A stretch of DNA of 20,000 nt, from the sequence record DRR723986_643, one strand, 5' to 3'. Shown piece after piece: positions 236-19,304 of the stretch (position 1 is its first letter; each line of letters begins with the position of its first letter). The position numbers and the translations under genes are program-made. The notes beneath the pieces were generated by a model. That model searched no databases. It saw only the letters and a program-made list of their open reading frames with translations, and had not been told where the DNA came from.

Positions 236-349
236 AGAAAATACGGTGGACCAGCGCTGCGAGCCGATTGCGGCACCGGTGCTTTCACGCTAGTCTCACC
301 ATACTAAGGCCGCGATTTGACGGCCAAACAGCCCAAACCCGGAGGGGAT

Positions 350-2906: not shown

Positions 2907-4772
2907 ATGAAACATAGGATTTCCCGCCGCGACTTCGTCAGCGGCATAGCCCTCGGTGCGGCAGGACTCCATCTATCGCCCCTGGAGGCGGTGGCACAAG
3001 GTTTGCTGCCGGCATCGAGCATTGGCCCGGATTATTACCCACCGGCACTGACCGGAATTCGAGGCAGTCACGCCGGTTCCTTCGAAGTCGCCCATGCGGT
3101 AGCGCGCGAAGGCAGGTCCTTTCCGCTACCCAAGCAGGTGAGCGAACAGGTTTACGACCTGGTCGTCGTGGGCGCCGGCATCTCCGGCCTGTCCGCGGCC
3201 AAGTTCTTCCGTGACCGTCACGACAGTGACAGCCGGATCCTGGTACTGGACAACCACGACGATTTCGGCGGCCATGCGCGCCGCAACGAACTGGATGTCG
3301 ACGGGCAGACCCTGCTCGGTTATGGCGGCAGCCAGACCATCGACAATCCCTCCGCTTACTCGCCGGTAGCGAAACAGCTGCTGCGGGACGTTGCGATCGA
3401 CACCGATCGCTTTTATGACTACTTCGACCAGACTTTCTTCAGCCGACGCAATATGACGGCGGGCCTGTACTTCGACCCGGCAAGCTATGGCCGGCACCAG
3501 ATCGTCGCCAACCCGATTGAGGCGGATGGGCTGACGCCGGAGCAGCTGGAAGCCGCAGTACGGGCCATGCCCATACCACCGGAAGACCAGACGGCCTTCC
3601 TCACCCTGCTGGCAGGGGGCGTGGATTACCTGGCAGGTAAAAGCCTGGCGGAGAAGGAAGCCCTGCTGCGCAATATCAGCTATCTCGACTACCTTGAGCA
3701 GTACGCCGGCGTTCCCGCGTCAGTGCGTGAGATCCTGCGCGATTCCTTCCTGCCGATGATTGGTGTGGGCTGGGAAGCAGCTTCCGCCTGGGAGGCGCTG
3801 GAATACCAGTTCCCCGGCACGGCAGATCTGGGGGGTGGCGTGCACCACGAACGTTCTGAACCCTACATCCATCACTTCCCCGACGGCAATGCCGGCGTCG
3901 CGCGATCCCTGGTCCGCGATCTGATTCCGGAGGCCATGCCAGGCAAGAGCATGGAAGACCTGGTTACCACCCGGGCCAACTACGCGGCGCTGGACCGCGA
4001 GGGATCGCCAGTCAGGGTGCGCCTCAACAGCACCGTGGTGCAGGTACGCAACAGCGTCGACGGCAGCGGGGTTGACGTCACCTACGTCAACAAGGGCAAT
4101 GCCTACCGGGTGCGCGCCAGGCACGTGGTGATGGCCTGCTACAACGGGATCATCCCGCATATCTGCCCGGAGGTACCCGAGGCACAGGCGTCAGCGATCC
4201 GCTACGCCACCAAGATACCCTTCGTGATCGGCAGCTTTGCCATCCGTAACTGGCAGGCCTTTGCCGACGCGGGCTATTACATGCTGTACACCCCGGGCGA
4301 CGTGCTGTTCAAGCGTATGCGGCTGGACTTCCCGGTAAGCATGGGCGACTACCAGTTTGCGCAGAAGCCCGACCAGCCGATCGTGATTTCCGCCTGGCAC
4401 TCGCCGACCGCCCGTGGCCTGCCGAACATGCAGCAGTACAAGGCGGGTCGCGCAAAGCTGCTGCAGATGAGCTACACGGATTTTGAGCAGGACATTTTCT
4501 CCCACATGGACGGCATGCTGGGCCCGCACGGATTTGACGCGGAGCGGGACATCGCGGCCATCACCCTGAACCGCTGGCCCCACGGCTATGCCTACGAGTT
4601 CGAGGGGATCGGGGTGCCCGCAGAATATGACCGCTATAACGGCCCGCACATCGCGGGGCGAGCGCAAATCGGCCGCATATCCATCGCTAACTCGGATTCC
4701 GAGGCCTATGCTTATGTCGACGGCGCGATCGATGCAGCCTCCCGCGCGGTGAATGAGCAGCTCGCGATTTAG
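2907..4772 (+). CDS. spdH: Spermidine dehydrogenase SpdH-like FAD/haem-b amine oxidoreductase, Tat-exported
   Basis: Twin-Arg signal ISRRDFVSG; YYPPALTGIRGSHAGSFEVAH; Rossmann motif YDLVVVGAGISGL; NHDDFGGHARRNE; EPYIHHFPDGNA; LNRWPHGYAY; IANSD. All are collinear with P. aeruginosa SpdH as recalled, including the two His residues described as haem ligands (EVAH, RWPHGY). Exact substrate uncertain. Confidence 0.82.
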   Translation: MKHRISRRDFVSGIALGAAGLHLSPLEAVAQGLLPASSIGPDYYPPALTGIRGSHAGSFEVAHAVAREGRSFPLPKQVSEQVYDLVVVGAGISGLSAAKFFRDRHDSDSRILVLDNHDDFGGHARRNELDVDGQTLLGYGGSQTIDNPSAYSPVAKQLLRDVAIDTDRFYDYFDQTFFSRRNMTAGLYFDPASYGRHQIVANPIEADGLTPEQLEAAVRAMPIPPEDQTAFLTLLAGGVDYLAGKSLAEKEALLRNISYLDYLEQYAGVPASVREILRDSFLPMIGVGWEAASAWEALEYQFPGTADLGGGVHHERSEPYIHHFPDGNAGVARSLVRDLIPEAMPGKSMEDLVTTRANYAALDREGSPVRVRLNSTVVQVRNSVDGSGVDVTYVNKGNAYRVRARHVVMACYNGIIPHICPEVPEAQASAIRYATKIPFVIGSFAIRNWQAFADAGYYMLYTPGDVLFKRMRLDFPVSMGDYQFAQKPDQPIVISAWHSPTARGLPNMQQYKAGRAKLLQMSYTDFEQDIFSHMDGMLGPHGFDAERDIAAITLNRWPHGYAYEFEGIGVPAEYDRYNGPHIAGRAQIGRISIANSDSEAYAYVDGAIDAASRAVNEQLAI

Positions 4773-5294: not shown

Positions 5295-6890
5295 ATGAAC
5301 GCCAAGCGCTTCGACGCCATTGTCCTTGGTGCCGGCCACAACGGCCTGACTACGGCCAATTACCTCGCCATGGGCGGCATGAACGTCTGCGTACTGGAGC
5401 AGCGCGAGGTGGTCGGCGGCGCGGCGGTCAGCGAAGAATTCCACCCCGGGTATCGCAACTCGCTGGCCTCCTACGTGGTCAGCCTGCTGCGTCAGGAAGT
5501 AGTCAGGGACCTGGAGCTTGAGCGTTATGGCTACGAGCCCATCCTGCTGGAGAACACGCTTTACCTCGACTCGCGGGGTGACTACCTGCTGCTGAACGGC
5601 AACGAGGCGCACGACCGGGCACAGTTCGCGCGCTTCTCGGCCACCGACTATGACGCGATGCACGCCTTCGAGGACAGCGTCGACAAGGTCGGCAGCATTC
5701 TCGCCCAGCAGTGGCTGCGCGAGCCTCCGAAGCTGCACGGCGGCGGCCTCAGCGACCTGCTCGACAGTGTAAAGCTGGGCCTGGACGTCTATCGCCTGGA
5801 CGAGGACAGCCGCTGGCGCCTGCTGCAGTTTTTCCTCGGCGCCCCGCAAAGCATCATCGATCGCTGGTTCGAAAGCGATAAGGTCAAGGCCATGGTTGCC
5901 GCGCATATCATGCCCGCCAACTACACACCCCTGAGCCAACCCGGGGCCAGTCTCGCCATGCTCCATCACGCGGTGGGCGAGGTCGGCGGGCGCAAGGGGG
6001 CCTGGGGCCTGGTACGCGGTGGCATGGGCACCATTACCCAGGCCATGGCGAGCTCCGCCCGGGACAAGGGCGTCACCATCCGCACCGGCGTACCTGTGGA
6101 ACGCATCCTGGTGGAGAACGGCGCGGTCACCGGCGTACAACTGGCAGGTGGCGAAACCCTGGCATGCCCGCTGGTTGCGGCCAATACCGACCCGAAGCGG
6201 ACTTTTCTCACCTTGCTCGGGGAACAACACCTGCCGGCCGACTTCGTGCGCGACATCCGCGCCTTCCGCCAGGAGTCGGCGTCACTGAGGATGAACCTTG
6301 CGCTCAGCGCGCTGCCGGAATTCGCCGCGCTGCCGGGAGCGAGCATCGGCCCGCAGCACCGGGCCAGTATCAGCCTGATCGAAAGCATGCAGCACGTGGA
6401 CCAGGCTTACTGCTCCGCCAAGCTGGGCATTCCCGCGGACCCGCCGATCGTCGAAGCCATCATTCCCAGCGCCAGCGACGACAGCCTGACCGACACCCCG
6501 GGCACCCATGTCATGAGCCTGCTGTGTAAGTACATGCCCTATGACCTCGCCAACGGCGAGCACTGGGACACCAGGAAGCCGGCGGTAGTCGAGGCGGTGC
6601 TGGATCATGTAGGCAAGTTCATTCCCAACCTCGGGGACATCCTGGTCCACGCGCAATGCCTGTCGCCCCTGGATATCGAGCGCCTGTTCGGTATGACCCG
6701 GGGCGATATCTGTCACGGGCGTATGGAACCCGACCAGCTGTACAGCGCCCGCCCCCACCCGCAGGCTGCCCAGTACGCGACACCGGTAAAAGGCCTGTAC
6801 CTTTGCGGCTCAGGCACCCATCCGGGCGGTGGCGTCACCGGCGCACCCGGGCACAATGCCGCACGCCGAATCCTGAAAGACCAGCGCTGA
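5295..6890 (+). CDS. COG1233 (phytoene dehydrogenase-like / PYROXD2-like) FAD-dependent oxidoreductase, paralogue 1
   Basis: DAIVLGAGHNGL; GGAAVSEEFHPGYRNS..SYVVSLL; GGMGTITQAMA; C-terminal GDICHG and GLYLCGSGTHPGGGVTGAPGHNAA. Confidence 0.88.
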   Translation: MNAKRFDAIVLGAGHNGLTTANYLAMGGMNVCVLEQREVVGGAAVSEEFHPGYRNSLASYVVSLLRQEVVRDLELERYGYEPILLENTLYLDSRGDYLLLNGNEAHDRAQFARFSATDYDAMHAFEDSVDKVGSILAQQWLREPPKLHGGGLSDLLDSVKLGLDVYRLDEDSRWRLLQFFLGAPQSIIDRWFESDKVKAMVAAHIMPANYTPLSQPGASLAMLHHAVGEVGGRKGAWGLVRGGMGTITQAMASSARDKGVTIRTGVPVERILVENGAVTGVQLAGGETLACPLVAANTDPKRTFLTLLGEQHLPADFVRDIRAFRQESASLRMNLALSALPEFAALPGASIGPQHRASISLIESMQHVDQAYCSAKLGIPADPPIVEAIIPSASDDSLTDTPGTHVMSLLCKYMPYDLANGEHWDTRKPAVVEAVLDHVGKFIPNLGDILVHAQCLSPLDIERLFGMTRGDICHGRMEPDQLYSARPHPQAAQYATPVKGLYLCGSGTHPGGGVTGAPGHNAARRILKDQR

Positions 6891-6897
6891 GCGAAGG

Positions 6898-8628
6898 TCA
6901 GCTCGCCAGCGGACCGTAGCGGCGGCGGATAAGATAAAAACTGAACAGCCCCAGCGGCACGAAGAGCACGGCGGGACCAAAGGCGAACAGCGCCTCGGCA
7001 CCTGACCAGTTGATCGATCCGTCAGCCAGCAGCTGCCCCGCACCCGCCTGGTAAGGCTTCACGTACCACTGCAGCAGCACAAAGGGCATAGCCAGCCCAT
7101 ACAGAACCAACAGCAGCGGTGCCACCAGGGTCGTGCGGGTCATGGCGGGATCACGGTCCTCGGACGGCGCCCGGTGCAGACGCATGCGGTACACCGCCTC
7201 AACGCGACTTACCCGACCGGCACGCGATACCAGCACGATCGCCAGCAGGCTCGCCAGGGTGCCGAGCACCGCCGGGTCAAGGTAGCTGGGCAGCGAGATC
7301 CAGCCCAGATAGACCAGCGCCGCCGGTACAACATTGCCAAGGAAGCCGCAGACGATTCCCCAGTAAGCGCCAGCGGCCGTAATACGCCGGCTCCAGATAC
7401 TCATGAAACCCACCGGCCCCCAGGAGGAGGCGAACACCGTGCCGATAAACAACATGATCCAGAACACGTTCGGCGGCACCCAGTAGCAGGCGACCAGCAC
7501 AACGAGGGCGACGAACAGGACCGCGCTGCGGGTCTTGCCGAGGGTAAGGTGACCGGGCCGCGGCGTGACGTCGTTGCTCACGCTGAATCCCACCAGGGAC
7601 AGGAAGGTGGAAGCCGAGGACAGCGCCGCAGCCATGATACCGGCCAGCAGCAGGGCGCCGAGCAACTCGGGCACACTGTTCTTCGCCGCCCAGATAATCA
7701 CTGTTTCCGAGGGGCTGATGCCAGGATTGAGGAGGTTGATCAGGCCGCCGGCACCATAAATGAGGATCTGCATCGCGATAACCGCAAAGCAGGCGTAGAT
7801 CGCCGAGCGAATCACCACGTGCTCATTGCGCGCCATCAGGTGGCGGCTGGCCTGCCAGGGGCTGACTGCGTAGACCACCGCCCAGCTGATATCAATCACC
7901 ACGAACCAGATCAGGAAATCCACGGCAGTGGGCCAGTCGGTGCCGGGGCCGATGATGCCGTGCCAGGACGTGATATCCGGCTTCACCTCGGAGCGGGTGA
8001 GCGCTTCGACGGATGACGCCACACCGCCGAGATCCTGAACCAGGAAGATAACGAATGCCAGCGTGGCCAGACCGAACAGCAGGAACATCATGGTGTCGGT
8101 GATGATCACGCCCCGTGAGCCGGCATACATCGTAAACAAGGTATAGCTCAGCCAGGCGGCGAGCAGTGATTGCTCATAATCCAGAGCGGTGAGATCGGCC
8201 AGCAGTATGGCCGCGCCCTGGGTGACAACCAGCAGGTAGCCGCCCAGGCCGAGAATGATGGTGAGTCCCGCCGCCTGCTGCACCCGACGACTATTGAAGC
8301 GCTGGCCGAGGAAATCCGCGACCGTCGGCGCGCGACTGCGGCGCAGATAGGTGCCGAACAGCAGGGCACCGTAGACGTAACCGGTAACCGCAATACCCGG
8401 CAGGATGATATAGGCGCCCAACTGACCATCGTAAGTAAACGCGGCCTCACCGAGGAAGATCGAGGTACTGAACACACTGGCCACCAGTGTGCCCACGATC
8501 AGGAAGGTCGGCGCCCGCCTCCCGGCCACGAAGTAATCATCCAGCTGCTTGACCTGGCGCCCGCTGTAACTGCCCACGAAGACAAACAGGGCAACGCTGA
8601 CAATGATCGTGGCGGTGTACAGGTCGAT
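6898..8628 (-). CDS. Sodium:solute symporter (SSS/PutP family); probable non-canonical ATC start at 8628
   Basis: DDYFVAGRR, YTMYAG-like TMYAGSRGVIITD, AGIMAAALSSASTFL, WSRRITAAGA, many hydrophobic helices. The track's GTG at 8577 would cut TM1; the frame stays open upstream as IDLYTATIIVSVALFVFVGSY, with AGGAGG (8642-8637) 8 nt before ATC (8628-8626). Confidence 0.88.
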   Translation of the reverse strand: MDLYTATIIVSVALFVFVGSYSGRQVKQLDDYFVAGRRAPTFLIVGTLVASVFSTSIFLGEAAFTYDGQLGAYIILPGIAVTGYVYGALLFGTYLRRSRAPTVADFLGQRFNSRRVQQAAGLTIILGLGGYLLVVTQGAAILLADLTALDYEQSLLAAWLSYTLFTMYAGSRGVIITDTMMFLLFGLATLAFVIFLVQDLGGVASSVEALTRSEVKPDITSWHGIIGPGTDWPTAVDFLIWFVVIDISWAVVYAVSPWQASRHLMARNEHVVIRSAIYACFAVIAMQILIYGAGGLINLLNPGISPSETVIIWAAKNSVPELLGALLLAGIMAAALSSASTFLSLVGFSVSNDVTPRPGHLTLGKTRSAVLFVALVVLVACYWVPPNVFWIMLFIGTVFASSWGPVGFMSIWSRRITAAGAYWGIVCGFLGNVVPAALVYLGWISLPSYLDPAVLGTLASLLAIVLVSRAGRVSRVEAVYRMRLHRAPSEDRDPAMTRTTLVAPLLLVLYGLAMPFVLLQWYVKPYQAGAGQLLADGSINWSGAEALFAFGPAVLFVPLGLFSFYLIRRRYGPLAS

Positions 8629-8664: not shown

Positions 8665-10245
8665 CTAGCGGTCGCGCAGAATCGCGCGTGCCGCGTTATG
8701 CCCCGGCAAGCCGCTCACCCCGCCTCCCGGGTGAGCCCCGGAACCACAGAGATACACACCCTCAACCGGCATCCGGTAATTTGCGTGCCCCGGGATCGGC
8801 CGCAGCGAATAGAACTGGTCGAGGTGCAGGGCGCCGTGGAAGATATCGCCGCCCACCATGCCCAGGTCGCGCTCGATATCCAGCGGCGTCTTGATCTGGC
8901 GCCCGACCACCGAGGCCCGGAAGTTGGGTGCGTACTGGTCGATGGTGTCGATCACCAGGTCGGCAACTTCCTCGCGCACAGCGTCCCAGTCCTGCCCCTC
9001 GGGCAGATGGCGCTGGAAATGCTGGCAGAACAGGCTTGCCACATGGCCACCCGGAGGTGCCAGGGAGTCGTCCTGGGTACTGGGGACCTGCATCGAGATT
9101 ACCGGCCGGCGGGACCAGCCCTGCTGCCGCGCATCATAGTAGGCATCCTGGATGTAACCCAGGGAGGGGCTGACCTCGATTGCGCCCAGGAAGTGCTCGT
9201 CGCCACGGCCGGCCATGCTCGAAAAGCGCGGCAGCTCCGACAGGGCGACATTCATTCGGAAGGTGGCAGAGTGACTGCGGTAATGGGCTATCCGGCGCTG
9301 GTCCGGCTCGTCCATCAGGCCCGGATCGAGCAATTTCTGCAGCAGGGTCTGCGGGTGCACATTGGCAGCGATAAAACGCGTGCTGAGTTCGCGGCCATCG
9401 GCGGTGCGAACGCCACAGGCAGTGCCGTCCCGAGTAAGGATTTCGCTGACCGGGGTACCGGTTTCGATACGCGCTCCCTTGCTGCGCGCGAAGGACGCCA
9501 TCGACTCACTGATCGCACCCATGCCGCCCCGCGCAATACCCCAGGCACCCGCGCGACCTTTCACCTCGCCAAAGGCATGGTGCAACAGCACGTAGGCGGT
9601 GCCGGCATGGTAGGGCTCGGCAAAATTCCCAATGACGCCCTCCAGACCCAGCACGCCCTTGAACGCCTCACCCTCAAACCAGCTATCGAGGTAATCACCG
9701 AGCGAACGGGTCATCAGCTCGGCGAGGATGATCTGATGCTGTTTGTCGAGCTTGCGGAACACATTGCCCGCCTTGAGTAAGGTCACAGCGTCACGCCAGC
9801 CACCGCCAAGGTTGGGCGGGGCCTGCACCGCCAGTTCGCGCAAGGCCATAGCGACGGTGGCAATACCGGCATCGAACTCATCTACCCGCTCGGCATCGCG
9901 GCGGGAAAAGCGCGCGATCTCAGCCCGCGCCTGGGCGCCGTCGCGGGTCAGCAGCAAATGATCGTTTTCCAGCAGGCTGAGGGTCCCCGCCGGGCGCTCC
10001 AGGATTTCCAGGCCGTGTCGCTCCAGCTCCAGGTCGCGGATTACCCCGGGGTGCAGCAGGCTGACGGAATAGGAATACACCGAATTACGGAAGCCCGGGT
10101 GAAACTCCTCGGTCACGGCGGCGCCACCCACCACGTCCCGGGCCTCCAGTACCGTGACCCGCAGGCCGGCCTTCGCCAGGTAGCCTGCACAGGCCAGGCC
10201 ATTGTGGCCGGCACCGATGACAATAACGTCTGTATCCGTCGCCAC
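8665..10245 (-). CDS. COG1233 (PYROXD2-like) FAD-dependent oxidoreductase, paralogue 2
   Basis: GTG start after GGGGATAGGA; DVIVIGAGHNGL; GGAAVTEEFHPGFRNS; TAYVLLHH; GGMGAIS; GDIFHG; YLCGSGAHPGGGVSGLPGHNAA. Confidence 0.88.
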   Translation of the reverse strand: MATDTDVIVIGAGHNGLACAGYLAKAGLRVTVLEARDVVGGAAVTEEFHPGFRNSVYSYSVSLLHPGVIRDLELERHGLEILERPAGTLSLLENDHLLLTRDGAQARAEIARFSRRDAERVDEFDAGIATVAMALRELAVQAPPNLGGGWRDAVTLLKAGNVFRKLDKQHQIILAELMTRSLGDYLDSWFEGEAFKGVLGLEGVIGNFAEPYHAGTAYVLLHHAFGEVKGRAGAWGIARGGMGAISESMASFARSKGARIETGTPVSEILTRDGTACGVRTADGRELSTRFIAANVHPQTLLQKLLDPGLMDEPDQRRIAHYRSHSATFRMNVALSELPRFSSMAGRGDEHFLGAIEVSPSLGYIQDAYYDARQQGWSRRPVISMQVPSTQDDSLAPPGGHVASLFCQHFQRHLPEGQDWDAVREEVADLVIDTIDQYAPNFRASVVGRQIKTPLDIERDLGMVGGDIFHGALHLDQFYSLRPIPGHANYRMPVEGVYLCGSGAHPGGGVSGLPGHNAARAILRDR

Positions 10246-10271: not shown

Positions 10272-11492
10272 TTAATTGCCCTGGATTTCCGGCGGCGGCG
10301 TCGCCCGCGCTCTTGCCGGGGCCCAGAAGGGCTGGTCCCTGACCGTGCAAAGCGCCACCTTGCGATAGTAGCGAAGTTCCTTCCGGTAGTAGATCTCGGC
10401 CCAGATAGCACCAGACAGGGCGGCGGTTTCGACCATCGCCAGCGCGATATTGGCTTTCACCGCCGGTGACCACATGGCGGATGTGATGTAGCCGATCTCC
10501 TTGCTGCAGGACTTGCTGCTATAAAGAATCGCGTCATCTGCCGGCTTGTTGCCCTCGATGTCCAGCTTCACCAGGGTAAATCGCGGCCCCCGCTCACGTT
10601 CCTCGAGCAATGCCCTGCGGCCGTTGAAGTGGGGCTTGCTGAAATCCACCAGCCAGCCCAGGTTCAACTCGTAGGGCGTCTGGTCATGCTGGAAGTGGAT
10701 TGTTTTCAGCGCCTCCGAGAATTCCATATCGGGCATGATGAACCCCGCTTCCATGCGCGCCATATTGGTCGCCGCCTCGCCGTAGGGGTGAATGCCGTGG
10801 TGCTCACCCGCTGCATACAGGGCGTCCCACAAGGCCAGTGCCTGCGCGGGCTCAATCCACAGTTCGTAACCCAGATCGCCGGTGAAACCGGTGCGGGACA
10901 CCATCAGCTGCTCTCCATTGAACGGGAAATGCATAACGCCAAAGGGTTTCAGGTTCTCGATACCCTCCAGGCCCATGGCCTTGAGGGTGGCGCAGGAGGT
11001 CGGGCCCTGCAGCGACAGGGCGGCAATCCGGTCGCTCATATCGACCACAGTGAGATCGTCAAAGCCGCAAGCGCTCTTGCGCAGCCAGGCCAGGCAGGGG
11101 CTGCCACAGGTGAGCATGAACCGGTCCTCGCCGAGGCGGAAAATCGTCCCGTCGTCGACCATACGACCCTCATCGGTACACCAGCACACGTAGGTCACCC
11201 GGTCGATCGCCAGTTTGCCCAGGTCGCGGGTGACCATGCGATCAAGCATCGCCAGGGCGTCGGGGCCACTCACATAGTATTTCTGCATGGGGCAGATATC
11301 GTAGGTCCCGCAGGTATTACGAATGCAGAAGTACTCGTAGCCGGCGTCGTAGTAGTAGTCGGCGAACTTGTAGCCGTTCCAGGACGACCAGGCATCACGC
11401 AGGTTCAGCGGCGCCTGTCGCGGGTGAAAATGCGACAGCCGCAAACGCTCACCGGCAAAGGGATCATCCTGCCGTGCGCCATCACTCGTCAT
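10272..11492 (-). CDS. GcvT/DmdA-family folate-dependent aminomethyltransferase
   Basis: ATG at 11492 with GGAGGA (11506-11501) 8 nt upstream, overlapping the previous stop. Motifs GRMVDDGTIFRL, LSLQGPTS, SRTGFTGDLGYEL, ARMEAG, IGYITSAMWSP..NIALA. No gcvH/gcvP in the window, so probably not the glycine-cleavage T protein. Confidence 0.88.
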   Translation of the reverse strand: MTSDGARQDDPFAGERLRLSHFHPRQAPLNLRDAWSSWNGYKFADYYYDAGYEYFCIRNTCGTYDICPMQKYYVSGPDALAMLDRMVTRDLGKLAIDRVTYVCWCTDEGRMVDDGTIFRLGEDRFMLTCGSPCLAWLRKSACGFDDLTVVDMSDRIAALSLQGPTSCATLKAMGLEGIENLKPFGVMHFPFNGEQLMVSRTGFTGDLGYELWIEPAQALALWDALYAAGEHHGIHPYGEAATNMARMEAGFIMPDMEFSEALKTIHFQHDQTPYELNLGWLVDFSKPHFNGRRALLEERERGPRFTLVKLDIEGNKPADDAILYSSKSCSKEIGYITSAMWSPAVKANIALAMVETAALSGAIWAEIYYRKELRYYRKVALCTVRDQPFWAPARARATPPPEIQGN

Positions 11493-13101
11493 AGCAATCA
11501 TCCTCCGGCACGGTGTTGGGCCGCTTCAGGTCGAGCAGGATTTCCCGGGCCGCATTCGCACCGCAGGCAGAGGAAACGCCACCGCCGGGGTGGGTCGACG
11601 AACCGCACATATACAGGTTCTTGACCGGCATACGGTACTGCCCGTAACCCGGGAAGGGGCGGTTGAACAGCAACTGGTCGATGGTCAGTTCGCCCTGGAA
11701 GATGTTGCCTTCGGTGAGCCCGATCTCGTTTTCAATCTCGTGCGGCGTGCGCACCTCCATGTGGACGATAAGGTCCTTGAAGCCAGGGCTGTGACGCTCG
11801 ATCTTGTCGATCACTGTCTGCCCGAACTGGTCCCGCTTCTCCGGCGTCCACGGACCATCCGCCAGCTCCGGCGGACAGTACTGGATAAAGTTGGACATCC
11901 AGTGCTTGCCGACCGGCGCCACCGTGGGATCCCAGGCCGAGGGAATGATCGACTCGATGAACGGATCCTCCGACCAGCGCCCGCGTTTCCAGCAGTCGTA
12001 GGCACGCTCCATGGTCTCCAGGGAGCCGACGAAGGTCTGTCCGCCACGGTTGATATAGCGGTTGTCCGGCAGACTGCTGAATGTCGGCAGGCCCGAGAGC
12101 GCAATATTGACCTTGCCGGAAGAGCCGCGGATCTTGAAATTGCTGGCCCGCTCATAAATGCCGGGGGGCACATCCGCCTTGTCCATGACCCGGGTGAAGG
12201 TGCGCCGCGCGTCGAGGTTGGATACCACGATCCGGGCCTGGATCTCATCGCCGTTCTCCAACGCCACCCCGACCGCCTGGCCGTTCCTCACCAGAATCTG
12301 CCGCACTCCCGACCCGGTACGTAGCTCGCCGCCCGCGGCCTGCAGAGCGCCGGCGAGCGCCTTGGAGATCGCGCCCATGCCACCCCGGGCCAGACCCCAG
12401 GCGCCGACATTGCCGTCGACATCGCCCATCACGTGGTGCAACAGGATGTAGGCGGAGCCGGGCGAGTACACCCCCAGGGCGGTGCCGATAATGCCCGGAC
12501 TGGCCATGGCCGCCTTGATCAGGTCGTTCTCGAAATAATCATCGAGGAAGTCGGCGGCGCTCATGGTGAAAAAGCGCACGTACTCGTAGAGTTCGCGTTC
12601 GCCCAGGGACCAGAACTCACGGGCGAGAAACAGCAGTTCACGAATATCCCGCGGCCTGAAAGAGCTGGGGTCCGGCGGGGTACGCAACAGGGTCTTGCGA
12701 ATCAGCTGCGCGTAACGACCGAGGTCGGCCTGAAAGCGGGCCATGGCATCCGCGTCATGCGGCGAGTGGCGCTTCAGTTCGAGGTAGCTGGCGGCCTCGG
12801 TCGGATAGTCGATCAGGGTCTTGCCATCGTGGCCGAAGGCCACTGTTCCAAGATAGGGGACCAGCAACAGACCATGCCTGGCCAGGTCGAGATCGCGGTG
12901 AATGGCCTGGCGCATCATGCTGCACACGTAGGAGCAGCTGGAATAAAACCAGCCTTCCTGCAGCTCGCGGGTCACCGCCGCACCACCGATATAGTCGTTC
13001 TTCTCCACCACCAGGACGTCGAGACCCGCCCTGGCCAGGTAGGCAGCATTGGTCAGGCCATTGTGGCCTGCACCGACGACAATGGCGTCATAGCGCTTCA
13101 C
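11482..13101 (-). CDS. COG1233 FAD-dependent oxidoreductase, paralogue 3
   Basis: Likely GTG start at 13101 (VKRYDAIVVGAGHNGL) in a GTGA 4-nt overlap with the upstream stop; SAYILLHH; GGMGAIS; GNIFQGE; YMCGSSTHPGGGVS. Confidence 0.88.
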   Translation of the reverse strand: MKRYDAIVVGAGHNGLTNAAYLARAGLDVLVVEKNDYIGGAAVTRELQEGWFYSSCSYVCSMMRQAIHRDLDLARHGLLLVPYLGTVAFGHDGKTLIDYPTEAASYLELKRHSPHDADAMARFQADLGRYAQLIRKTLLRTPPDPSSFRPRDIRELLFLAREFWSLGERELYEYVRFFTMSAADFLDDYFENDLIKAAMASPGIIGTALGVYSPGSAYILLHHVMGDVDGNVGAWGLARGGMGAISKALAGALQAAGGELRTGSGVRQILVRNGQAVGVALENGDEIQARIVVSNLDARRTFTRVMDKADVPPGIYERASNFKIRGSSGKVNIALSGLPTFSSLPDNRYINRGGQTFVGSLETMERAYDCWKRGRWSEDPFIESIIPSAWDPTVAPVGKHWMSNFIQYCPPELADGPWTPEKRDQFGQTVIDKIERHSPGFKDLIVHMEVRTPHEIENEIGLTEGNIFQGELTIDQLLFNRPFPGYGQYRMPVKNLYMCGSSTHPGGGVSSACGANAAREILLDLKRPNTVPEDDCYDE

Positions 13102-14639
13102 TTGAGGATCTCCCGCGCGGCATTGTGCCCGGGGCCTCCCATCAGGCCACCACCGGGGTGGCAACCCGCGCCACAAAGATACAGACCAGGAATCGGCGTG
13201 CTGTACTGCGCCGCTTCGTAGGTGGGGCGCATCATCAGCAGCTGGTCGACGGCAAACTCCGTGTGATGCCAGTGACCACCGGTCACATGGTGCGTCGCCT
13301 CCAGGTCAGCGGGCGTCAGCAGCTCGGCCTGCAGCACCAGGTCGCCCAGGCCAGGCGAATACTCTTCCAGGGTGGCCATGACCCGCTCGGTCAGCCGGGC
13401 GCGGGCCTCCTCGGTCCAGCCGCCCTTCAACCGGGCCGGTACATACATGATGTGGGCAGACAGCACATGCTGTCCCGGTGGCGCCAGTGACGGGTCGTGC
13501 AGGCTGGGAATCAGCAGCTCCAGCACCGGGTTCTCGGAGCACTGCCCGTACTTGGCGTCGTCAAAGGCAAACTCTATGGCATCGGGCTCGGGTGCAATGA
13601 TCATCCGGCCGTCGGCTCGCTCCAGTCCGGGAAAGCGGGGCAGGTCCCGCAGGGCCAGGTGCAGCTTGGCCACATAACCTTCGCAGCGCAGGCGCTGGAT
13701 GCGGTTGGTAAATTCGATTTCCAGGTGACGCGCGCCTACCAGTTGCAGGAAGGTCCGCTGCGGGTCGGCGGAAGACACCACCCGCTGCGCCTGAATCCGC
13801 TCGCCGTCAGCCAGCTCAACCCCGGTCGCCCGCAAACCCTGCTCGTCGCCAGCAACAAGGATTCGCGACACGGGGGTAGAAAAACGCAGCTCCGCACCGG
13901 CCGCGGTCGCCGCGGCCTGCAGGGCACCGACCAGGCCCTCGATGCCGCCGGCGGGCACGCTGTGCAGGCCGCGATGTTCTCCCAGCATCCGGTACAACAG
14001 CGCGAACACCGGGCTGTTGGGCGAGCGCGGCGCCAGCTTCGACCCGATGAGCCCGTCCCAGCTGAGCGCAGCCTGCAGACGCTTGTTATCGAAGTTTTCA
14101 TCCATGAGGTCGCGCATCGGCAAGGTGGCTACCCGCAGGAATTCAAGCATGTCCGCCTTGCCCAGCATCCGCAGCCTCAGACCCAGCTTGCCGAAAGTAA
14201 GCAGTTCGCCGGCGCTGTTATTGCCAATGCGCGGCATGGTCCTGGTCCAGAAGGGCTGCAGGGCGCGAGCAAACTTTTTCAGCGACTCGCGATAGCGCGG
14301 GTATGTAGCTGCGTCCTCATCGCCAACCCCGGTAACCCGGGAGTCCTCAATCACGATGTGCTCACCGGCGGGGTCGAGGGCCACAGTGGCCAGCGCCGGC
14401 CCTGGCTGGTAACCGTGGGCGGCCAGCTTCAATTCAGCTGCGACCTGCGGTGAGAACTGGTTGACGCTGTGGGCGACCGACGCCCGAAAGCCGGGATGGA
14501 ATTCCCGGGTCGACGCCAGGCCACCGGCCATGGCTGCGGCCTCCAGCACCAGCACCCGCTGTCCCTGTCCGGCAAGGTAGGCGGCACAGATGAGCCCGTT
14601 GTGGCCGGCGCCGATAACAATCGTGTCGTAGCTGTTCAT
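13098..14639 (-). CDS. COG1233 FAD-dependent oxidoreductase, paralogue 4 (divergent)
   Basis: ATG at 14639 (MNSYDTIVIGAGHNGL); GGLASTREFHPGF; GGHWHHTE; GLYLCGAGCHPGGGLMGGPGHNAA. The start is inferred from alignment to the other paralogues; the SD is weak. Confidence 0.85.
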   Translation of the reverse strand: MNSYDTIVIGAGHNGLICAAYLAGQGQRVLVLEAAAMAGGLASTREFHPGFRASVAHSVNQFSPQVAAELKLAAHGYQPGPALATVALDPAGEHIVIEDSRVTGVGDEDAATYPRYRESLKKFARALQPFWTRTMPRIGNNSAGELLTFGKLGLRLRMLGKADMLEFLRVATLPMRDLMDENFDNKRLQAALSWDGLIGSKLAPRSPNSPVFALLYRMLGEHRGLHSVPAGGIEGLVGALQAAATAAGAELRFSTPVSRILVAGDEQGLRATGVELADGERIQAQRVVSSADPQRTFLQLVGARHLEIEFTNRIQRLRCEGYVAKLHLALRDLPRFPGLERADGRMIIAPEPDAIEFAFDDAKYGQCSENPVLELLIPSLHDPSLAPPGQHVLSAHIMYVPARLKGGWTEEARARLTERVMATLEEYSPGLGDLVLQAELLTPADLEATHHVTGGHWHHTEFAVDQLLMMRPTYEAAQYSTPIPGLYLCGAGCHPGGGLMGGPGHNAAREILK

Positions 14640-14732: not shown

Positions 14733-16775
14733 TCAGGCAACGGCCGCCACGTCGACTGTACAGTCGTAGTAACAGGCGCCACCGGCGAGATCGGCCTTGT
14801 GTCCGGGGATCAGTGCGTTGATGGTCTGCCCGGTCGGGCTCTCGGCGATCCACGCTCCCTTGGGAACGAACAGGGTGCCGGTCCTGACCCGGTCAGATAT
14901 CTGCAGTGGCAGATGCACTTCTCCCAGATCGTTGAACAAGCTCACCTGCACGCCCTGCTCCAGCCCGAGGGAGTCGGCGTCCGCAGGATGCATTTCACAG
15001 ACCAGGTCCTTGTCGTGTCGCGCTACGCCACCCAGGGTCGAGTTGATGCGCCGCTCGGAGGCGGGGCTGACCACGACAAAACGGCGTGCGGACCGGAGCT
15101 CGCGAAACCCCGGCAGACCCTGGCCGCACTCGGCCTCAAGCGCCGCGCTGTACAGCTCGATCCTGCCGCTGGGCGTGGCCGGCGGCAGGCCGCGAAGCAG
15201 CCCAGGCGGCGAAACTGCCGACATATCCAGTGCGCTGTCCGTCGGCAGCTCACTGGGACGCAGGCCACCGAGAGCCGGTGCATCCGGCTCAATGGCCTGG
15301 TCCATCAGCGCTGCATCGGAGTCACGAAAGCAGGCTTCCTCAAAACCAAACCGAGCCGCCAGCCTGCGGAACAGTTCGGTATTGGGCAAGGCCTCACCTA
15401 CCGGCGCCAGCACGGGGGCGGATCGCTGCAGGTAATGATGGCCGTAGGCTTTGTACAGATCACCGTATTCCAGGTGACTTGCCGCCGGCAGGATGACGTC
15501 GGCACAGGCCATGGAATCCGTCATGCTGAGATCCGATCCGACCACGAACAGCGACTCATCCAACAGCGCGGCGCGCATCCCGCGCTGGCGTGGGTGTACC
15601 GCAACCGGGTTGTGGTTATAGATGAAGACGGCTTTCACCGGGATCGCGTCACCCGGGTCCCCGATATGGTCCGGCAGATCGAGGACATTGAACTCGCGCA
15701 GTCCCGGCGGAGCCAGGTCAGGGCGACTGAGGGCTTCCGAGGCCACCGGGAAATACCCGGAGACATCGCAGACCCCGGCGCCGGGCTCGCCAAAATTCCC
15801 GGTGAGCGCCGGCAGCGCGAACAAGGCGCGCAGGCCAGAGCCACCATTGCGATTGCGTTCCGGTGCGACACCCACGGAAATCGCCGCGGGGCTGAGTTCC
15901 CGCCAGTAGCGCGCGAACTGGTAGATATCCTCCACCGCCAGCCCACAGAGTGCGGCCGCTCGCTCCGGCGGGTACTGCGCTGCCCGGTCGAGGAATTCGC
16001 GCGCGCCCAGCACATGCTCTGCGATGAAGCTGTCGTCCAACCCGCCCTCCTGCTCCAGCAGGGCCGCCACCGAATACGCCAGCACCACGTCGGTGCCCGG
16101 CATGACCGGCAGGTGCAGGTCAGCAGTTTCGGCAATGCGGGTGCGCTTGGGGTCGACCACCACCAGGCGGGCACCCCGCTTGCGGGCATCGCGCAGCAGG
16201 GTAGTCAGGTGCAGGTTGCAGGCGGTGATATTGTTACCCCAGACCACAATCAATCGCGAATGCGCGAGCTCGGCATAAGAGATGCCACCAACCTCACCGA
16301 ACACGCTGTCCCAGGCCGCGCTCGATGCCCCGGTGCACAGGGGCGTGGAGTCCACCTTGCTGGCACCGAGACGGTTGAAGAAGCGCTGGTCCATGGACCC
16401 GCCCGCCAGCAGCCCCATCGGACCGCCATAGGTCAGAGGCGCGATCGCCTCGCTGCCATATTCCCCAATGATCTGCTGAAAGCGCTCGTACACAGTATCC
16501 AGGGCCTGCTCCCAGGATACCGGGCGAAAAGCCATCGCGCCCTTGGGCCCGTCGCGCAGCAACGGGGTCAGCAGTCGCTGGGGGCCGTGGACCAGTTCCG
16601 GCAGGCCCTCGGCCACCTTGGCGCAGATCTTGCCGCGGGTGAAGGGGTTCGCATGACTGCCGCGGACGCGGTCTACCTTGCCATCGACGACATCGATCGA
16701 CAGGCTGCAGGTGTCCGCACAATCGAGGGGACACACGCTGGGCAGGCTGGTGGCGACGGGCTCGGCGGATGACAT
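14733..16775 (-). CDS. Molybdopterin (bis-MGD) oxidoreductase, DMSO-reductase superfamily, cytoplasmic, substrate unknown
   Basis: N-terminal 4Fe-4S motif CPLDCADTC..NPFTRGKICAK; RLLTPL; SWEQALD; IVVWGNN; VVVDPKRT; PGTD; ADVILPAA; C-terminal MHPADA...FNDLG molybdopterin-dinucleotide domain. No Tat signal. SD AGGGAG 8 nt upstream. Confidence 0.9.
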   Translation of the reverse strand: MSSAEPVATSLPSVCPLDCADTCSLSIDVVDGKVDRVRGSHANPFTRGKICAKVAEGLPELVHGPQRLLTPLLRDGPKGAMAFRPVSWEQALDTVYERFQQIIGEYGSEAIAPLTYGGPMGLLAGGSMDQRFFNRLGASKVDSTPLCTGASSAAWDSVFGEVGGISYAELAHSRLIVVWGNNITACNLHLTTLLRDARKRGARLVVVDPKRTRIAETADLHLPVMPGTDVVLAYSVAALLEQEGGLDDSFIAEHVLGAREFLDRAAQYPPERAAALCGLAVEDIYQFARYWRELSPAAISVGVAPERNRNGGSGLRALFALPALTGNFGEPGAGVCDVSGYFPVASEALSRPDLAPPGLREFNVLDLPDHIGDPGDAIPVKAVFIYNHNPVAVHPRQRGMRAALLDESLFVVGSDLSMTDSMACADVILPAASHLEYGDLYKAYGHHYLQRSAPVLAPVGEALPNTELFRRLAARFGFEEACFRDSDAALMDQAIEPDAPALGGLRPSELPTDSALDMSAVSPPGLLRGLPPATPSGRIELYSAALEAECGQGLPGFRELRSARRFVVVSPASERRINSTLGGVARHDKDLVCEMHPADADSLGLEQGVQVSLFNDLGEVHLPLQISDRVRTGTLFVPKGAWIAESPTGQTINALIPGHKADLAGGACYYDCTVDVAAVA

Positions 16776-16824: not shown

Positions 16825-17748
16825 TCAGCCGCTGGCGCGCATGTGCAGAAACTGCAGCGCCAACGACGCCCCGGCAAGCGCGGTGATATCCGCATGATCG
16901 TAAGCGGGGGACACCTCAACCACATCGAAGCCAACAATATTGAGGTGCGACAAGCCCTCGAGGATGCGCAGGGCCCGCGAGGTGGACAAACCGCCTACCA
17001 CCGGCGTGCCGGTGCCGGGCGCAAAGGCCGGATCCAGGCAATCGATATCAAAGGTCAGGTAAGCCGGGCGTTCGCCGACCCGGCTGCAAATGGCCTCCAC
17101 TATCGCTGCCACCGAGGATTCATTGGCCTGATGGGCGTCGATAACCTGGAAGGCGTGGTTGGCACGGTCGTAGTCCGTGCGAATGCCAATCTGGATCGAG
17201 TGCGCCGGATCGATAAGCCCCTCCCTCGGCGCCCGGTGGAACATGCAGCCGTGGCTGTACTTTTCTTCCTCATCGTAGGTGTCGGTGTGCGCATCGAAGT
17301 GAATCAGCGCCAGCTCGCCATGAGTCTGTGCAGTGCCGCGCAGCAGCGGCAGGGTAACGAAGTGATCGCCCCCCAGCGCCACCAGGGTCTTGCCCGCCCC
17401 GGTGATCCGGGCTGCGTGGGCCTCAACCCGGGCGAGCATGTCCTCTGAATCGCCAAACAGGAACTGCACATCGCCATAGTCCGCCACCCGCAGCCTGTCG
17501 GCGAGGGCGAAATCCCAGGGCCAGCGCTTGTCTTCCCAACGCAGGTTAGCGCTGGCCTGGCGTATACCGGTGGGACCGCTGCGGGTGCCCGCGCGCCCGC
17601 TGGTGCCCAGGTCATAGGGTACGCCCATCACGAAGGCGTCCAGCTCCGGATCATCGACATCGCGACTCAGGGGCAGGCCCATAAAACCAAAGACGTTGGC
17701 ATACATCGAGTATTCGCTGCCCGGAAAATCGCTCTCGGAATCCCTCAC
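16825..17748 (-). CDS. speB: Agmatinase (ureohydrolase family)
   Basis: GVPYDLGTSGRAGTRSGPTGIRQAS; GGDHFVT; HFDAHTD; TFDIDCLDPAFAPGTGTP; DVVEVSPAYD..ITAL. These give the full Mn-binding set and closely resemble E. coli SpeB. Confidence 0.88.
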   Translation of the reverse strand: MRDSESDFPGSEYSMYANVFGFMGLPLSRDVDDPELDAFVMGVPYDLGTSGRAGTRSGPTGIRQASANLRWEDKRWPWDFALADRLRVADYGDVQFLFGDSEDMLARVEAHAARITGAGKTLVALGGDHFVTLPLLRGTAQTHGELALIHFDAHTDTYDEEEKYSHGCMFHRAPREGLIDPAHSIQIGIRTDYDRANHAFQVIDAHQANESSVAAIVEAICSRVGERPAYLTFDIDCLDPAFAPGTGTPVVGGLSTSRALRILEGLSHLNIVGFDVVEVSPAYDHADITALAGASLALQFLHMRASG

Positions 17749-17784: not shown

Positions 17785-19134
17785 CTAAAGGCAGGCGTCG
17801 TATTCCAACGGCGTTACCTGGCGATCAAATTCGTCCATTTCCTGCTGCTTGAGCAGCACGAAAACCCGCTGGAACTCTTCGCCAAAACGTTCCCGGATGA
17901 AGTCAGAGGATTCGAACCGGGCCAGGGCATCCGGCCAGTACCGCGGCAGACTGGCGGGCACTTGCTCATAGGCATTGCCTTCAAGCGGTTCGGGGGCCTC
18001 CAGCTTGCGTTCTATCCCCTCGAGGATGCCCGCCAGCAGGGCAGCTATCACCAGGTGAGGCTGGGCGTCCGCGCCGCCCACCCGGTGCTCGATGCGGGTA
18101 GCGGCCGGCGCATCCGCCGGCACGCGCAGGGCAACCGTTCGATTTTCATAGCCCCAGGTCGGCGCCATCGGCGCATGGGTGCCGCGCTGGAAGCGCCGGT
18201 AGGAATTCTGGTTCGGTGCGAACAACAGCATCGCATCGGCCATCGTCGACAGGCAGCCGGCGATTGCCTGGCGCAGCAGCGGCGTGCCCTGCCCCGTGCC
18301 ATCGTCGAACGCATTATTGCCGTCGGCATCCAGCAGGCTGCAATGCAGGTGCATGCCGCTGCCCGCCAGTTCGCCGAAAGGTTTGGCCATGAACGTGGCA
18401 ATCAGGTCGTGACGCCTGGCGACGCCCCTGATTGCGCGCTGCAGCATAAACGCCTGGTCAGCCGCCACCAGCGCATCAGGACTGTGGTAGAGATTGATCT
18501 CGTACTGGGAGGGCGCGCTCTCCTTGATCAGGGTATCGATCGGCAACTGCTGGGCATCACAGGCGTCGCGGATTTCGTGCATCAGATCCGCCATCCCGCT
18601 CATGGTATCGATGCAATAGGTCTGCCCGGTCTGCAGCGCGCCGCCGATCCGGTCGGTCTGGGTATGGGTCGGTCGGCCCAGGGTATCGCGCTCGTCGTGC
18701 AGCAGGAAAAACTCCATTTCGCTGGCTACCACCGGCGTCAGCCCAAGGGCTGCCAGCCGGTCAATCTGGCGCTGCAGGATGCCCCGCGGATCGAGCCCGG
18801 AGGCACTGCCGTCCACCTCACTCAGGGATATCATGATCTGGCCAGTCGGCCGCGTGGCCCAGGGCACCGGGGCGAGGGTGCGGATGTCGGCCTGGCACAG
18901 ACCGTCACCGTCGCCGGAATCAAATACCCAGGCTTCCACATCCCGGCCCCAGACATCAAAGGCCTGGGCGCTGAGGGGCAGCTTCAGCCCCCCCGCCACG
19001 ACCTTCTCTATCTTGTCGCGGGTAACCCACTTCCCCCGCAAGCCGCCGGCTATATCCGGCAGGATCACGTCGAACACTTCAATATCAGGATGTGCCTCAA
19101 GAAATGCCTGTAACCGGGTCGCGCTGTTTTCCAT
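17785..19134 (-). CDS. puuA: Glutamine-synthetase-like gamma-glutamyl-polyamine (putrescine) ligase, PuuA/PauA/SpuI family
   Basis: DIAGGLRGKW; ASEMEFFL; ESAPSQYEINL; FMAKPF..LAGSGMHLH; NSYRRF; APTWGYENRT..LRVP; RIEHR. It lacks the GYEAP flap of true GlnA and sits in a polyamine gene context. Confidence 0.82.
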   Translation of the reverse strand: MENSATRLQAFLEAHPDIEVFDVILPDIAGGLRGKWVTRDKIEKVVAGGLKLPLSAQAFDVWGRDVEAWVFDSGDGDGLCQADIRTLAPVPWATRPTGQIMISLSEVDGSASGLDPRGILQRQIDRLAALGLTPVVASEMEFFLLHDERDTLGRPTHTQTDRIGGALQTGQTYCIDTMSGMADLMHEIRDACDAQQLPIDTLIKESAPSQYEINLYHSPDALVAADQAFMLQRAIRGVARRHDLIATFMAKPFGELAGSGMHLHCSLLDADGNNAFDDGTGQGTPLLRQAIAGCLSTMADAMLLFAPNQNSYRRFQRGTHAPMAPTWGYENRTVALRVPADAPAATRIEHRVGGADAQPHLVIAALLAGILEGIERKLEAPEPLEGNAYEQVPASLPRYWPDALARFESSDFIRERFGEEFQRVFVLLKQQEMDEFDRQVTPLEYDACL

Positions 19135-19239
19135 CGTGTCTTATCCGTTTTCCATCCGCTTGCGTGAGAACAAACCACCACCTTTGGGGTAATTCTTCCG
19201 CTACGGGGCTATGACACACTATTTAACTATCTCGCCACC

Positions 19240-19254
19240 TGTTCGGCTATAACA
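19240..19254. promoter_or_regulatory. Candidate operator TGTT-N7-AACA in the divergent puuA/spuC intergenic region
   Basis: TGTTCGGCTATAACA is an inverted repeat that overlaps a -10-like TATAAC (19248-19253) and loosely resembles PuuR/PauR-type sites ending in AACA. Confidence 0.35.
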
Positions 19255-19304
19255 CCTGAGGGTAGACCCGCAGCCCCGGTCGCGCCCCTCACGAGGACAT
19301 CCCA

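Follow-up and report, generated by a model that had tools for sequence, protein, structure and literature searches.

Oxidative demethylases that are coupled to folate have a central part in turning over methylated amines such as glycine betaine, sarcosine and trimethylamine N-oxide (TMAO), and thereby in marine nitrogen and one-carbon (C1) fluxes. To our knowledge, all described members of this group use either a flavin domain of the DAO fold or a metal centre. In dimethylglycine dehydrogenase, sarcosine dehydrogenase and dimethylglycine oxidase (DMGDH, SARDH and DMGO), an N-methyl group is oxidized at the flavin and its carbon is passed to tetrahydrofolate (THF) on a GcvT-fold module, with the DAO-fold FAD domain and the module fused in one chain. 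Heterotetrameric sarcosine oxidase, the multi-subunit SoxBDAG demethylase, carries the catalytic flavoprotein SoxB and the GcvT module (SoxA, behind a second dinucleotide-binding domain) on separate polypeptides, and purU is a typical neighbor of its operon. Here we describe a trio of genes in a 20,000-nucleotide stretch of DNA from the sequence record DRR723986_643 (referred to below as the window), which encodes two COG1233/CrtI-fold flavoproteins and a free-standing GcvT-family protein. Judged from comparative sequence analysis, the trio is a candidate for a folate-coupled oxidative demethylase with a heteromeric CrtI-fold flavoprotein, widespread in coastal marine Gammaproteobacteria.

An earlier note on this DNA had proposed that the trio might be a split THF-dependent N-demethylase. 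We refer to the two flavoproteins as alpha (paralogue 4 of that note) and beta (its paralogue 3); the genes and their junctions are arranged as follows.

13098..14639, minus strand: alpha candidate, protein P0003, 513 amino acids, COG1233/CrtI-fold flavoprotein; start codon ATG at 14639, stop codon TGA at 13100-13098
11482..13101, minus strand: beta candidate, protein P0002, 539 amino acids, COG1233/CrtI-fold flavoprotein; start codon GTG at 13101-13099, stop codon TGA at 11484-11482
10272..11492, minus strand: stand-alone GcvT-family folate-binding protein, P0001, 406 amino acids; start codon ATG at 11492-11490, stop codon TAA at 10274-10272
13098..13101, minus strand: GTGA overlap of the alpha stop and the beta start, read directly from the sequence
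11482..11492, minus strand: overlap of beta and GcvT, 11 nucleotides, read directly from the sequence
11482-11535, minus strand: acidic C-terminus of beta, ...KRPNTVPEDDCYDE, near-invariant in 35 orthologues

Both overlaps had been reported in the earlier note, and both were recovered on the minus-strand sequence. An in-frame ATG at 11501 offers the GcvT gene an alternative start, with which its overlap with beta would be 20 nucleotides long. Shine-Dalgarno-like motifs are positioned 8 nucleotides 5' of the beta GTG at 13101 (GGGAGA) and 8 nucleotides 5' of the GcvT ATG at 11492 (GGAGGA). The trio is embedded in a co-directional run of nine minus-strand open reading frames (ORFs) with inter-ORF gaps of at most 93 nucleotides, in which an ORF without Pfam or NCBIfam match, a glutamine synthetase-like (GS-like) ligase, an agmatinase and a molybdopterin oxidoreductase precede alpha, beta and GcvT, and a further COG1233 paralogue and a sodium:solute symporter follow them. 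A scan of the window returned no Rfam family, no tRNA and no sigma-70-like promoter, and its terminator-like sites occur at chance level (8 found, 7.7 expected). Parts of the stretch are contained in 11 DNA runs from marine metagenomes.

To describe the trio in other bacteria, the GcvT protein was scanned against one genome per species; this yielded 143 confirmed relatives, the best 80 of which were kept as loci and underlie all counts out of 80 given below. The relatives kept are 68-85% identical; several stem from records labelled Alphaproteobacteria, the others from Halieaceae, Porticoccaceae/SAR92, Woeseiaceae and Lysobacterales. Carriers available in culture are Oceanicoccus sagamiensis, Halioglobus japonicus, Congregibacter variabilis IMCC43200 and strain NOR5-3. 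The 13 proteins of the window were then mapped onto the 80 loci, with the starts at the gene junctions chosen by a start-codon heuristic of our own. Nine loci with less than 700 nucleotides upstream of the GcvT gene were set aside, leaving 71 that could be judged. A beta orthologue is located directly upstream of GcvT in each of these 71 loci, and alpha is present as well in 69 of them, while the remaining two end at a contig edge. The GTGA junction of the window has its counterpart in most relatives: alpha and beta overlap by 4 nucleotides (ATGA or GTGA) in 58 of the 69 loci and are separated by a spacer of 1-7 nucleotides in the other 11. Since the genes flanking the trio differ widely between loci and the trio itself stays intact, we regard it as a conserved unit, and its arrangement is far beyond chance. 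The order alpha, beta, GcvT is retained even in four of the Alphaproteobacteria-labelled records (L028, L053, L055, and L068). In the orthologue alignments, identity to the respective window protein is highest for beta (78-90%), intermediate for GcvT (70-85%) and lowest for alpha (55-77%). On a large scale, the distribution of the trio is patchy: when 300 genomes were drawn evenly from the class, 4 of them contained a close homologue of beta (E <= 1e-150). Our literature search, whose coverage did not extend to subscription journals, found no paper on a COG1233-GcvT unit.

The COG1233 cluster from the window and the 80 loci has 191 members, and the 187 of them that reach at least 480 amino acids were used for a maximum-likelihood tree. 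Its deepest division, with a support of 100, is between an alpha clade and a beta-side clade. In the alpha clade (78 rows), 58 rows are first genes of main trios and 15 are genes next to GcvT in a second, paralogous trio. To the beta-side clade (109 rows), the main trio contributes its gene next to GcvT (69 rows) and the paralogous trio its first gene (9 rows); the clade also holds two groups of stand-alone paralogues (24 rows, including paralogues 1 and 2 of the window), which never adjoin a GcvT gene. Each clade has an invariant loop of its own, GGHWHH in alpha and TEGNIFQGE in beta. Hence, by clade membership, each trio consists of one alpha, one beta and one GcvT gene in whichever order, the order of alpha and beta being swapped in the paralogous trios relative to the main trio. 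A second trio is found in at least 17 of the 80 loci, and the complete genome of a Porticoccaceae bacterium (G001) contains a third one, with overlaps of 8 and 4 nucleotides, whose flavoproteins share 61% identity with beta and 44% with alpha. The trio has thus been duplicated as a whole unit, with up to three copies per genome.

These patterns bear on the simplest alternative, namely that the adjacency carries no functional meaning and that unrelated genes have stayed together by descent. Many of the 80 loci stem from related marine Gammaproteobacteria, so that part of the synteny is inherited; however, the surroundings change freely around an intact trio, the same order recurs in the four Alphaproteobacteria-labelled records, and the unit has been duplicated with a swapped gene order. 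The pairwise distances of the three genes correlate as well (r 0.76-0.77), a value obtained without a control that shared descent would equally produce. We consider mere co-inheritance highly improbable.

The family assignments made in the earlier note, two COG1233 flavoproteins and a GcvT protein, agree with both Pfam and NCBIfam. Alpha and beta, which are 34% identical to each other, both match the Pfam families Amino_oxidase, NAD_binding_8 and DAO; with 74.6 bits for alpha and 60.9 bits for beta against a threshold of 19.8, both are members of the Amino_oxidase family (PF01593). The GxGxxG...E dinucleotide-binding motif and a C-terminal HPGGG stretch are kept in the alpha and beta orthologues; in alpha, GxGxxG, E33 and HPGGG are conserved in 35 orthologues. 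An AlphaFold2 (AF2) model of beta built on a deep alignment of 148 rows reached a mean confidence (pLDDT) of 94.6 and a pTM of 0.94; a first model, computed from close orthologues only, had a pLDDT of 56 and was not used. Among solved structures, those nearest to the beta model belong to desaturases of the carotenoid type and to orphan homologues: 4rep (Z 34.3; root mean square deviation 2.9 over 472 residues), 3ka7 (28.9), 3nrn (27.1) and the plant phytoene desaturase PDS (26.2). They are followed by renalase (25.8), putrescine oxidase (25.1) and the monoamine oxidases (about 24), so that 4rep, 3ka7, putrescine oxidase and the monoamine oxidases together span Z scores of 23-34. In the model, the fold of beta thus sits in the CrtI/amine-oxidase superfamily. 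The wider family is large and for the most part orphan, with 2074 clusters at 50% identity that match beta at E <= 1e-30.

The C-terminal tail of beta, ...DLKRPNTVPEDDCYDE (ending NTVPEDDCYDE), is nearly invariant in 35 rows and is predicted with low confidence in the monomer model. This combination suggests that the tail is a candidate docking motif. The DNA that encodes it also holds the Shine-Dalgarno motif of the GcvT gene, and the tail is conserved even where the two genes do not overlap.

Heteromeric pairs of COG1233 proteins have a precedent in the limonene dehydrogenase CtmAB of Castellaniella defragrans. According to PMC4109377, CtmA and CtmB are encoded by adjacent, divergent COG1233 paralogues that are 27% identical and annotated as alpha and beta subunits; both are required to oxidize the allylic methyl group of a hydrocarbon, with a ferredoxin and a ferredoxin reductase as partners. 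Our comparison of CtmAB with the trio is one of descriptions. As an adjacent and divergent COG1233 pair it resembles alpha and beta, and we count its oxidation of a methyl group as a precedent for the heteromeric flavoprotein that we propose; it differs from the trio in having an allylic hydrocarbon as its substrate and no folate protein. CtmAB also gives substance to another possibility, that the pair is a dehydrogenase of a CtmAB-like or carotenoid type for a non-amine substrate (an allylic methyl group, an isoprenoid or a lipid) and that the link to amine genes described below is incidental. Such pairs can evidently hydroxylate methyl groups of hydrocarbons (PMC4109377), and the nearest structures and models are those of carotenoid enzymes (4rep; the CrtO model at 231-260 bits; crtI_fam, TIGR02734, at 123.3 bits for alpha and 114.4 bits for beta). 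However, the crtI_fam scores do not reach the cut-off of 238.1, and those for CrtO, CrtD and CrtISO all stay far below theirs, on which account we rejected an identity as CrtI or another carotenoid equivalog. Furthermore, carotenoid, terpene, ferredoxin and ferredoxin-reductase genes are absent from the window and from the recurrent neighbors of the trio, no ferredoxin or reductase domain being found among the 13 window proteins and the 23 recurrent neighbor families, and a non-amine substrate would leave the invariably linked folate protein without a role. We therefore hold a non-amine dehydrogenase to be improbable.

A further member of the broad COG1233-type family, human PYROXD2, has been tied to methylated amines. 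This tie was drawn in the earlier note and is borne out by PMC3169529, in which the PYROXD2 locus appears as a metabolite quantitative trait locus for urinary trimethylamine and plasma dimethylamine. The likeness to the trio flavoproteins is one of broad family name; some bacterial clusters among the Atlas neighbors of beta bear the automatic name 'Pyridine nucleotide-disulfide oxidoreductase domain-containing protein', which we treat as a lead only. PYROXD2 is a single gene, and we know of no GcvT partner for it. LSD1, a demethylase of the amine-oxidase fold, has been reported to bind THF.

The GcvT protein of the trio, P0001, is a member of the GcvT superfamily, as its scores for GCV_T (PF01571; 195.9 bits, threshold 25.6) and GCV_T_C (PF08669; 34.2 bits, threshold 25.9) lie above the thresholds. 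Its best NCBIfam match is to the C-terminal half of the TMAO demethylase Tdm (NF053776; 247 bits, profile positions 386-760), and the match to the Tdm profile (6e-55) also covers the linker ahead of the GCV_T domain. Its nearest chain in the PDB is likewise a Tdm (9q5a, 1e-47), and it also aligns with the C-terminal GcvT domains of DMGDH/DMGO-type chains (1pj5, 1.3e-23; 4p9s, 1.1e-20). These latter matches agree with the background invoked in the earlier note, the fusion of a flavin domain to a GcvT domain in such dehydrogenases: DMGDH and DMGO chains carry the GcvT domain at their C-terminus. While Tdm is thus the nearest characterized relative of P0001, we rejected a full Tdm identity, since 247 bits compare with a cut-off of 1100 and the N-terminal DUF1989 metal domain, to which the GcvT domain of Tdm is fused, is missing; in the trio, the partner releasing the C1 unit would be the flavoprotein pair instead of a metal centre. 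A role as the T protein of glycine cleavage was rejected as well, because the gcvT equivalog model (TIGR00528) scores 149.8 bits against a cut-off of 235.85, a separate and higher-scoring housekeeping GCV_T gene is present elsewhere in each of five carrier genomes, and no glycine-cleavage H or P protein occurs among the window genes or the recurrent neighbors. The GcvT of the trio is an accessory paralogue.

The DDG stretch of P0001 (D113, D114, and G115) is invariant in 35 GcvT orthologues and has ...VDDGT... as its counterpart in Tdm. In a wider alignment of 81 rows, in which proteins resembling Tdm, SoxA and DMGDH are included, D114 does not vary. The conserved aspartate of this stretch has a role in activating THF in this superfamily. 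In a tree of these 81 rows, which contains no canonical T proteins and has some long branches, the GcvTs of both trio types form a single clade (SH-aLRT 99) that groups with the DUF1989-fused Tdm-like proteins and lies outside the group of proteins resembling SoxA and DMGDH. The trio can be told from SoxBDAG also by the soxA model, which scores 144 bits against a cut-off of 1164, by the absence of SoxB, SoxD and SoxG from the window, and by the fold of its flavoproteins. It differs from DMGDH, SARDH and DMGO in distributing the reaction proposed for it over two CrtI-fold proteins and a separate GcvT.

We propose that the trio encodes a heteromeric, folate-coupled flavin N-demethylase, a general mechanism that we favor with a confidence slightly better than even. 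An alpha-beta heterodimer that binds FAD would dehydrogenate the N-methyl (N-CH3) group of a methylated amine, and THF bound to GcvT would take up the carbon of the iminium or of formaldehyde to give 5,10-methylene-THF. The logic would be the one known from DMGDH, SARDH and DMGO, from SoxBDAG and from Tdm. The C1 unit may then be oxidized through formyl-THF by steps of the FolD/PurU type to formate. Glutathione-dependent formaldehyde-activating enzyme (GFA) might deal with formaldehyde that leaks from the reaction. Part of this proposal, and the choice of substrate, draws on the genes around the trio; in the window, these are the following.

14733..16775, minus strand: cytoplasmic molybdopterin (bis-MGD type) oxidoreductase (Pfam Molybdopterin, Molydop_binding and Molybdop_Fe4S4)
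16825..17748, minus strand: agmatinase (NF002564, 422 bits, exceeding the cut-off of 302)
17785..19134, minus strand: GS-like ligase of the gamma-glutamyl-amine synthetase type (Gln-synt_C 336 bits; GGputSyn 214 bits, under cut-off)
19227-19862, minus strand: ORF without Pfam or NCBIfam match, upstream of the GS-like gene
8665..10245, minus strand: stand-alone COG1233 paralogue 2, in a separate clade, starting 26 nucleotides after the GcvT stop
6898..8577, minus strand: sodium:solute symporter (Pfam SSF), last gene of the co-directional cluster
5295-6890, plus strand: fourth COG1233 paralogue of the window, in a beta-side clade of its own
2907..4772, plus strand: homologue of spermidine dehydrogenase (SpdH), 621 amino acids (PDB 7d9f and 7d9j, 1.6e-147, residues 5-617)
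317-2833, plus strand: TonB-dependent receptor, directly ahead of the SpdH homologue

The molybdopterin oxidoreductase, positioned between the agmatinase and the trio and hence directly upstream of the latter, has an N-terminal Fe4S4 domain and no leader. Its best NCBIfam match is Fdh-alpha (234 bits, under cut-off). It is found at the same position in 8 of the 80 loci, in two of which (L013 and L014) PurU precedes it. The enzyme may be the one that oxidizes the formate. The ORF at 19227-19862 has counterparts of 48-54% identity at the same position in L001-L003 and L018. The two stand-alone COG1233 paralogues (8665-10245 and 5295-6890) never adjoin GcvT or an alpha-type gene and recur in Halieaceae loci beside DAO, cupin and SSF genes; a cupin is also encoded on the opposite strand of the window. 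A weak terminator-like hairpin (6902-6886) is situated near the end of the symporter gene. The SpdH homologue carries a twin-arginine-like leader (N-terminus ...SRRDFV...), and its pairing with a TonB-dependent receptor would suit the uptake and periplasmic cleavage of a large polyamine. Together, the SpdH homologue, the agmatinase and the GS-like ligase mark the window as a polyamine-catabolism neighborhood.

Our own ORF calls and clustering across the 80 loci yielded 23 families of recurrent neighbors, among them those listed here.

48 of 80 loci: conserved protein of about 288 amino acids (U288), the commonest neighbor (for example L057:5862-6728)
43 of 80 loci: AraC regulator with a SnoaL-like domain
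41 of 80 loci: DAO protein resembling PuuB/pipecolate oxidase
32 of 80 loci: small MOSC protein, directly following GcvT in many loci
24 of 80 loci: SpdH-like protein
21 of 80 loci: Asp/Asn-hydroxylase-like protein
20 of 80 loci: GS-like ligase
16 of 80 loci: GFA
14 of 80 loci: sodium:solute symporter
10 of 80 loci: omega-aminotransferase (AptA model above cut-off)
7 of 80 loci: formyl-THF deformylase PurU (above cut-off, 415 bits)
5 of 80 loci: GbcA-like Rieske oxygenase

Either GFA or PurU is present in 22 of the 80 loci and at least one amine-catabolic gene in 54, and genes resembling PuuA, PuuB and PuuD are all found among the neighbors of the trio. U288, a same-strand gene immediately upstream of the trio in some loci and an opposite-strand gene downstream of it in others, gave no match in Pfam, NCBIfam or the PDB and only unnamed clusters in the Atlas. 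The MOSC protein, absent from the window, follows GcvT in lineages other than those with the molybdopterin oxidoreductase upstream. The third trio of the Porticoccaceae genome resides in a Pot/Puu-like island: a BetI-type TetR regulator, an acyl-CoA dehydrogenase and a Pot-like ABC system are located ahead of it, an ADP-forming acyl-CoA synthetase, a GS-like ligase, a Rieske oxygenase and a DAO protein follow it, and a class-I glutamine amidotransferase, a class-III aminotransferase, an arginase-family protein and a CN-hydrolase are encoded further downstream. A side module of TPR-sulfotransferase proteins, TonB-dependent receptors, a protein of about 313 amino acids and a small Asp/Asn-hydroxylase-like protein also occurs beside the trio islands, in this genome (L081:3774-15373) and in the Halioglobus loci L010, L011, L015, L020, L023 and L025.

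In view of the polyamine context, N-methylated polyamines or their gamma-glutamyl derivatives suggest themselves as substrates, and the presence of several paralogous trios in one island suggests several related substrates or degrees of methylation. The likeliest substrate would be a methylated polyamine or a polyamine-derived intermediate, possibly gamma-glutamylated. We put forward methylated (poly)amines as the substrate class only tentatively and with more doubt than confidence, guided by the gene neighborhoods. The carrier genomes include some with and some without sarcosine oxidase (SoxB in two of five), which is neutral with regard to dimethylglycine or sarcosine as the substrate.

Several observations weigh against a single folate-coupled N-demethylase for methylated amines. 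The fold of beta, with desaturases closest and amine oxidases second, leaves the choice between C-C and C-N chemistry undecided. In the relatives, the beta/GcvT junction is not strictly coupled: with the starts set by our heuristic, it spans -20 to +54 nucleotides, with an overlap in 24 of the 71 loci and a gap of 0-54 nucleotides in 47. The apparent fusions in public collections are frameshift artefacts and hence provide no Rosetta-stone support. We rejected three flavoprotein-GcvT fusions (P0124, P0126, and P0164) for Arg/Ala-rich, frameshift-type junk at the junction and two beta-alpha fusions (P0329 and P0330) as gene-calling artefacts with a frameshifted Arg/Ala-rich bridge; P0328 is a clean tandem flavoprotein, a singleton of another subtype. 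No gene for an electron-transferring flavoprotein (ETF) or a ferredoxin is found in the window, in which no partner for flavin re-oxidation is evident, and no RNA run is listed as containing the stretch. Finally, unmethylated polyamines yield no C1 unit, so that the proposal requires substrates that are methylated.

Some of these points would also fit if the three proteins served a shared pathway without forming one enzyme. Alpha and beta would then dehydrogenate the C-N or C-C skeleton of a polyamine-derived intermediate in the way of a polyamine oxidase or a desaturase, and GcvT would act separately, either scavenging formaldehyde from a different source, of which the GbcA-like Rieske oxygenase is an example, or transferring methyl groups to THF in the manner of DmdA or LigM. 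The spacing of beta and GcvT, variable where alpha and beta are nearly always overlapped, and the closeness of the beta fold to desaturases agree with such a division of labor, as do the Rieske and MOSC genes beside the trio and weak matches of P0001 to DmdA (132 bits) and LigM (61 bits). However, GcvT is never found without the pair in the 71 judged loci and has been duplicated along with it, the window contains neither a Rieske nor a MOSC gene and most loci lack them, and the scores for DmdA, DesA and LigM are well under those of P0001 for Tdm and GcvT. A shared pathway of separate enzymes is in our judgment somewhat unlikely, and we retain the folate-coupled N-demethylase as the preferred reading. 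With respect to the earlier note, the core of its new demethylase architecture, a flavoprotein pair acting with a stand-alone GcvT, gains from the comparative data (a trio content that is invariant across families and two classes, the duplication of the unit, the constant presence of both alpha and beta, a GcvT nearest to the formaldehyde-capturing domain of Tdm, and PurU, GFA and polyamine genes as neighbors), while a fold closest to carotenoid desaturases and the lack of a credible natural fusion count against it. Its label 'split' is imprecise, since the flavoprotein has a different fold, in two different subunits, and is not a DAO domain that has been split.

Diatoms and other silica-forming algae build methylated long-chain polyamines, that is, chains of N-methyl-propyleneimine, into their shells. 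A bolder version of our proposal would make the trios the N-demethylating core of a bacterial pathway for these compounds, an extension that we regard as decidedly unlikely. In such a pathway, the large cation would enter through a TonB-dependent receptor and be cleaved in the periplasm by an SpdH-type dehydrogenase. Methyl groups of differing degree would be taken off as methylene-THF by several paralogous alpha-beta-GcvT enzymes, and degradation of the fragments would be completed by Puu/Pau-like enzymes. Within the same coverage of the literature, which left subscription journals outside, we found no paper on the bacterial breakdown of methylated long-chain polyamines. If this extension were true, Halieaceae and SAR92, which are associated with blooms, would be linked to a pool that is rich in nitrogen and C1 units and for which no breakdown has been described, and the orphan flavoproteins of the PYROXD2 type would obtain a first chemistry.

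If the folate-coupled N-demethylase itself holds true, the pairing of a free GcvT with an alpha-beta flavoprotein of the CrtI fold would represent a third solution to folate-coupled oxidative demethylation, next to the DAO-fold flavin domain and the metal centre, and one whose genes are carried by abundant, bloom-associated bacteria of coastal waters. It would also supply a testable chemistry for the large orphan branch of COG1233 to which the 2074 clusters belong and which may include the human PYROXD2 type.

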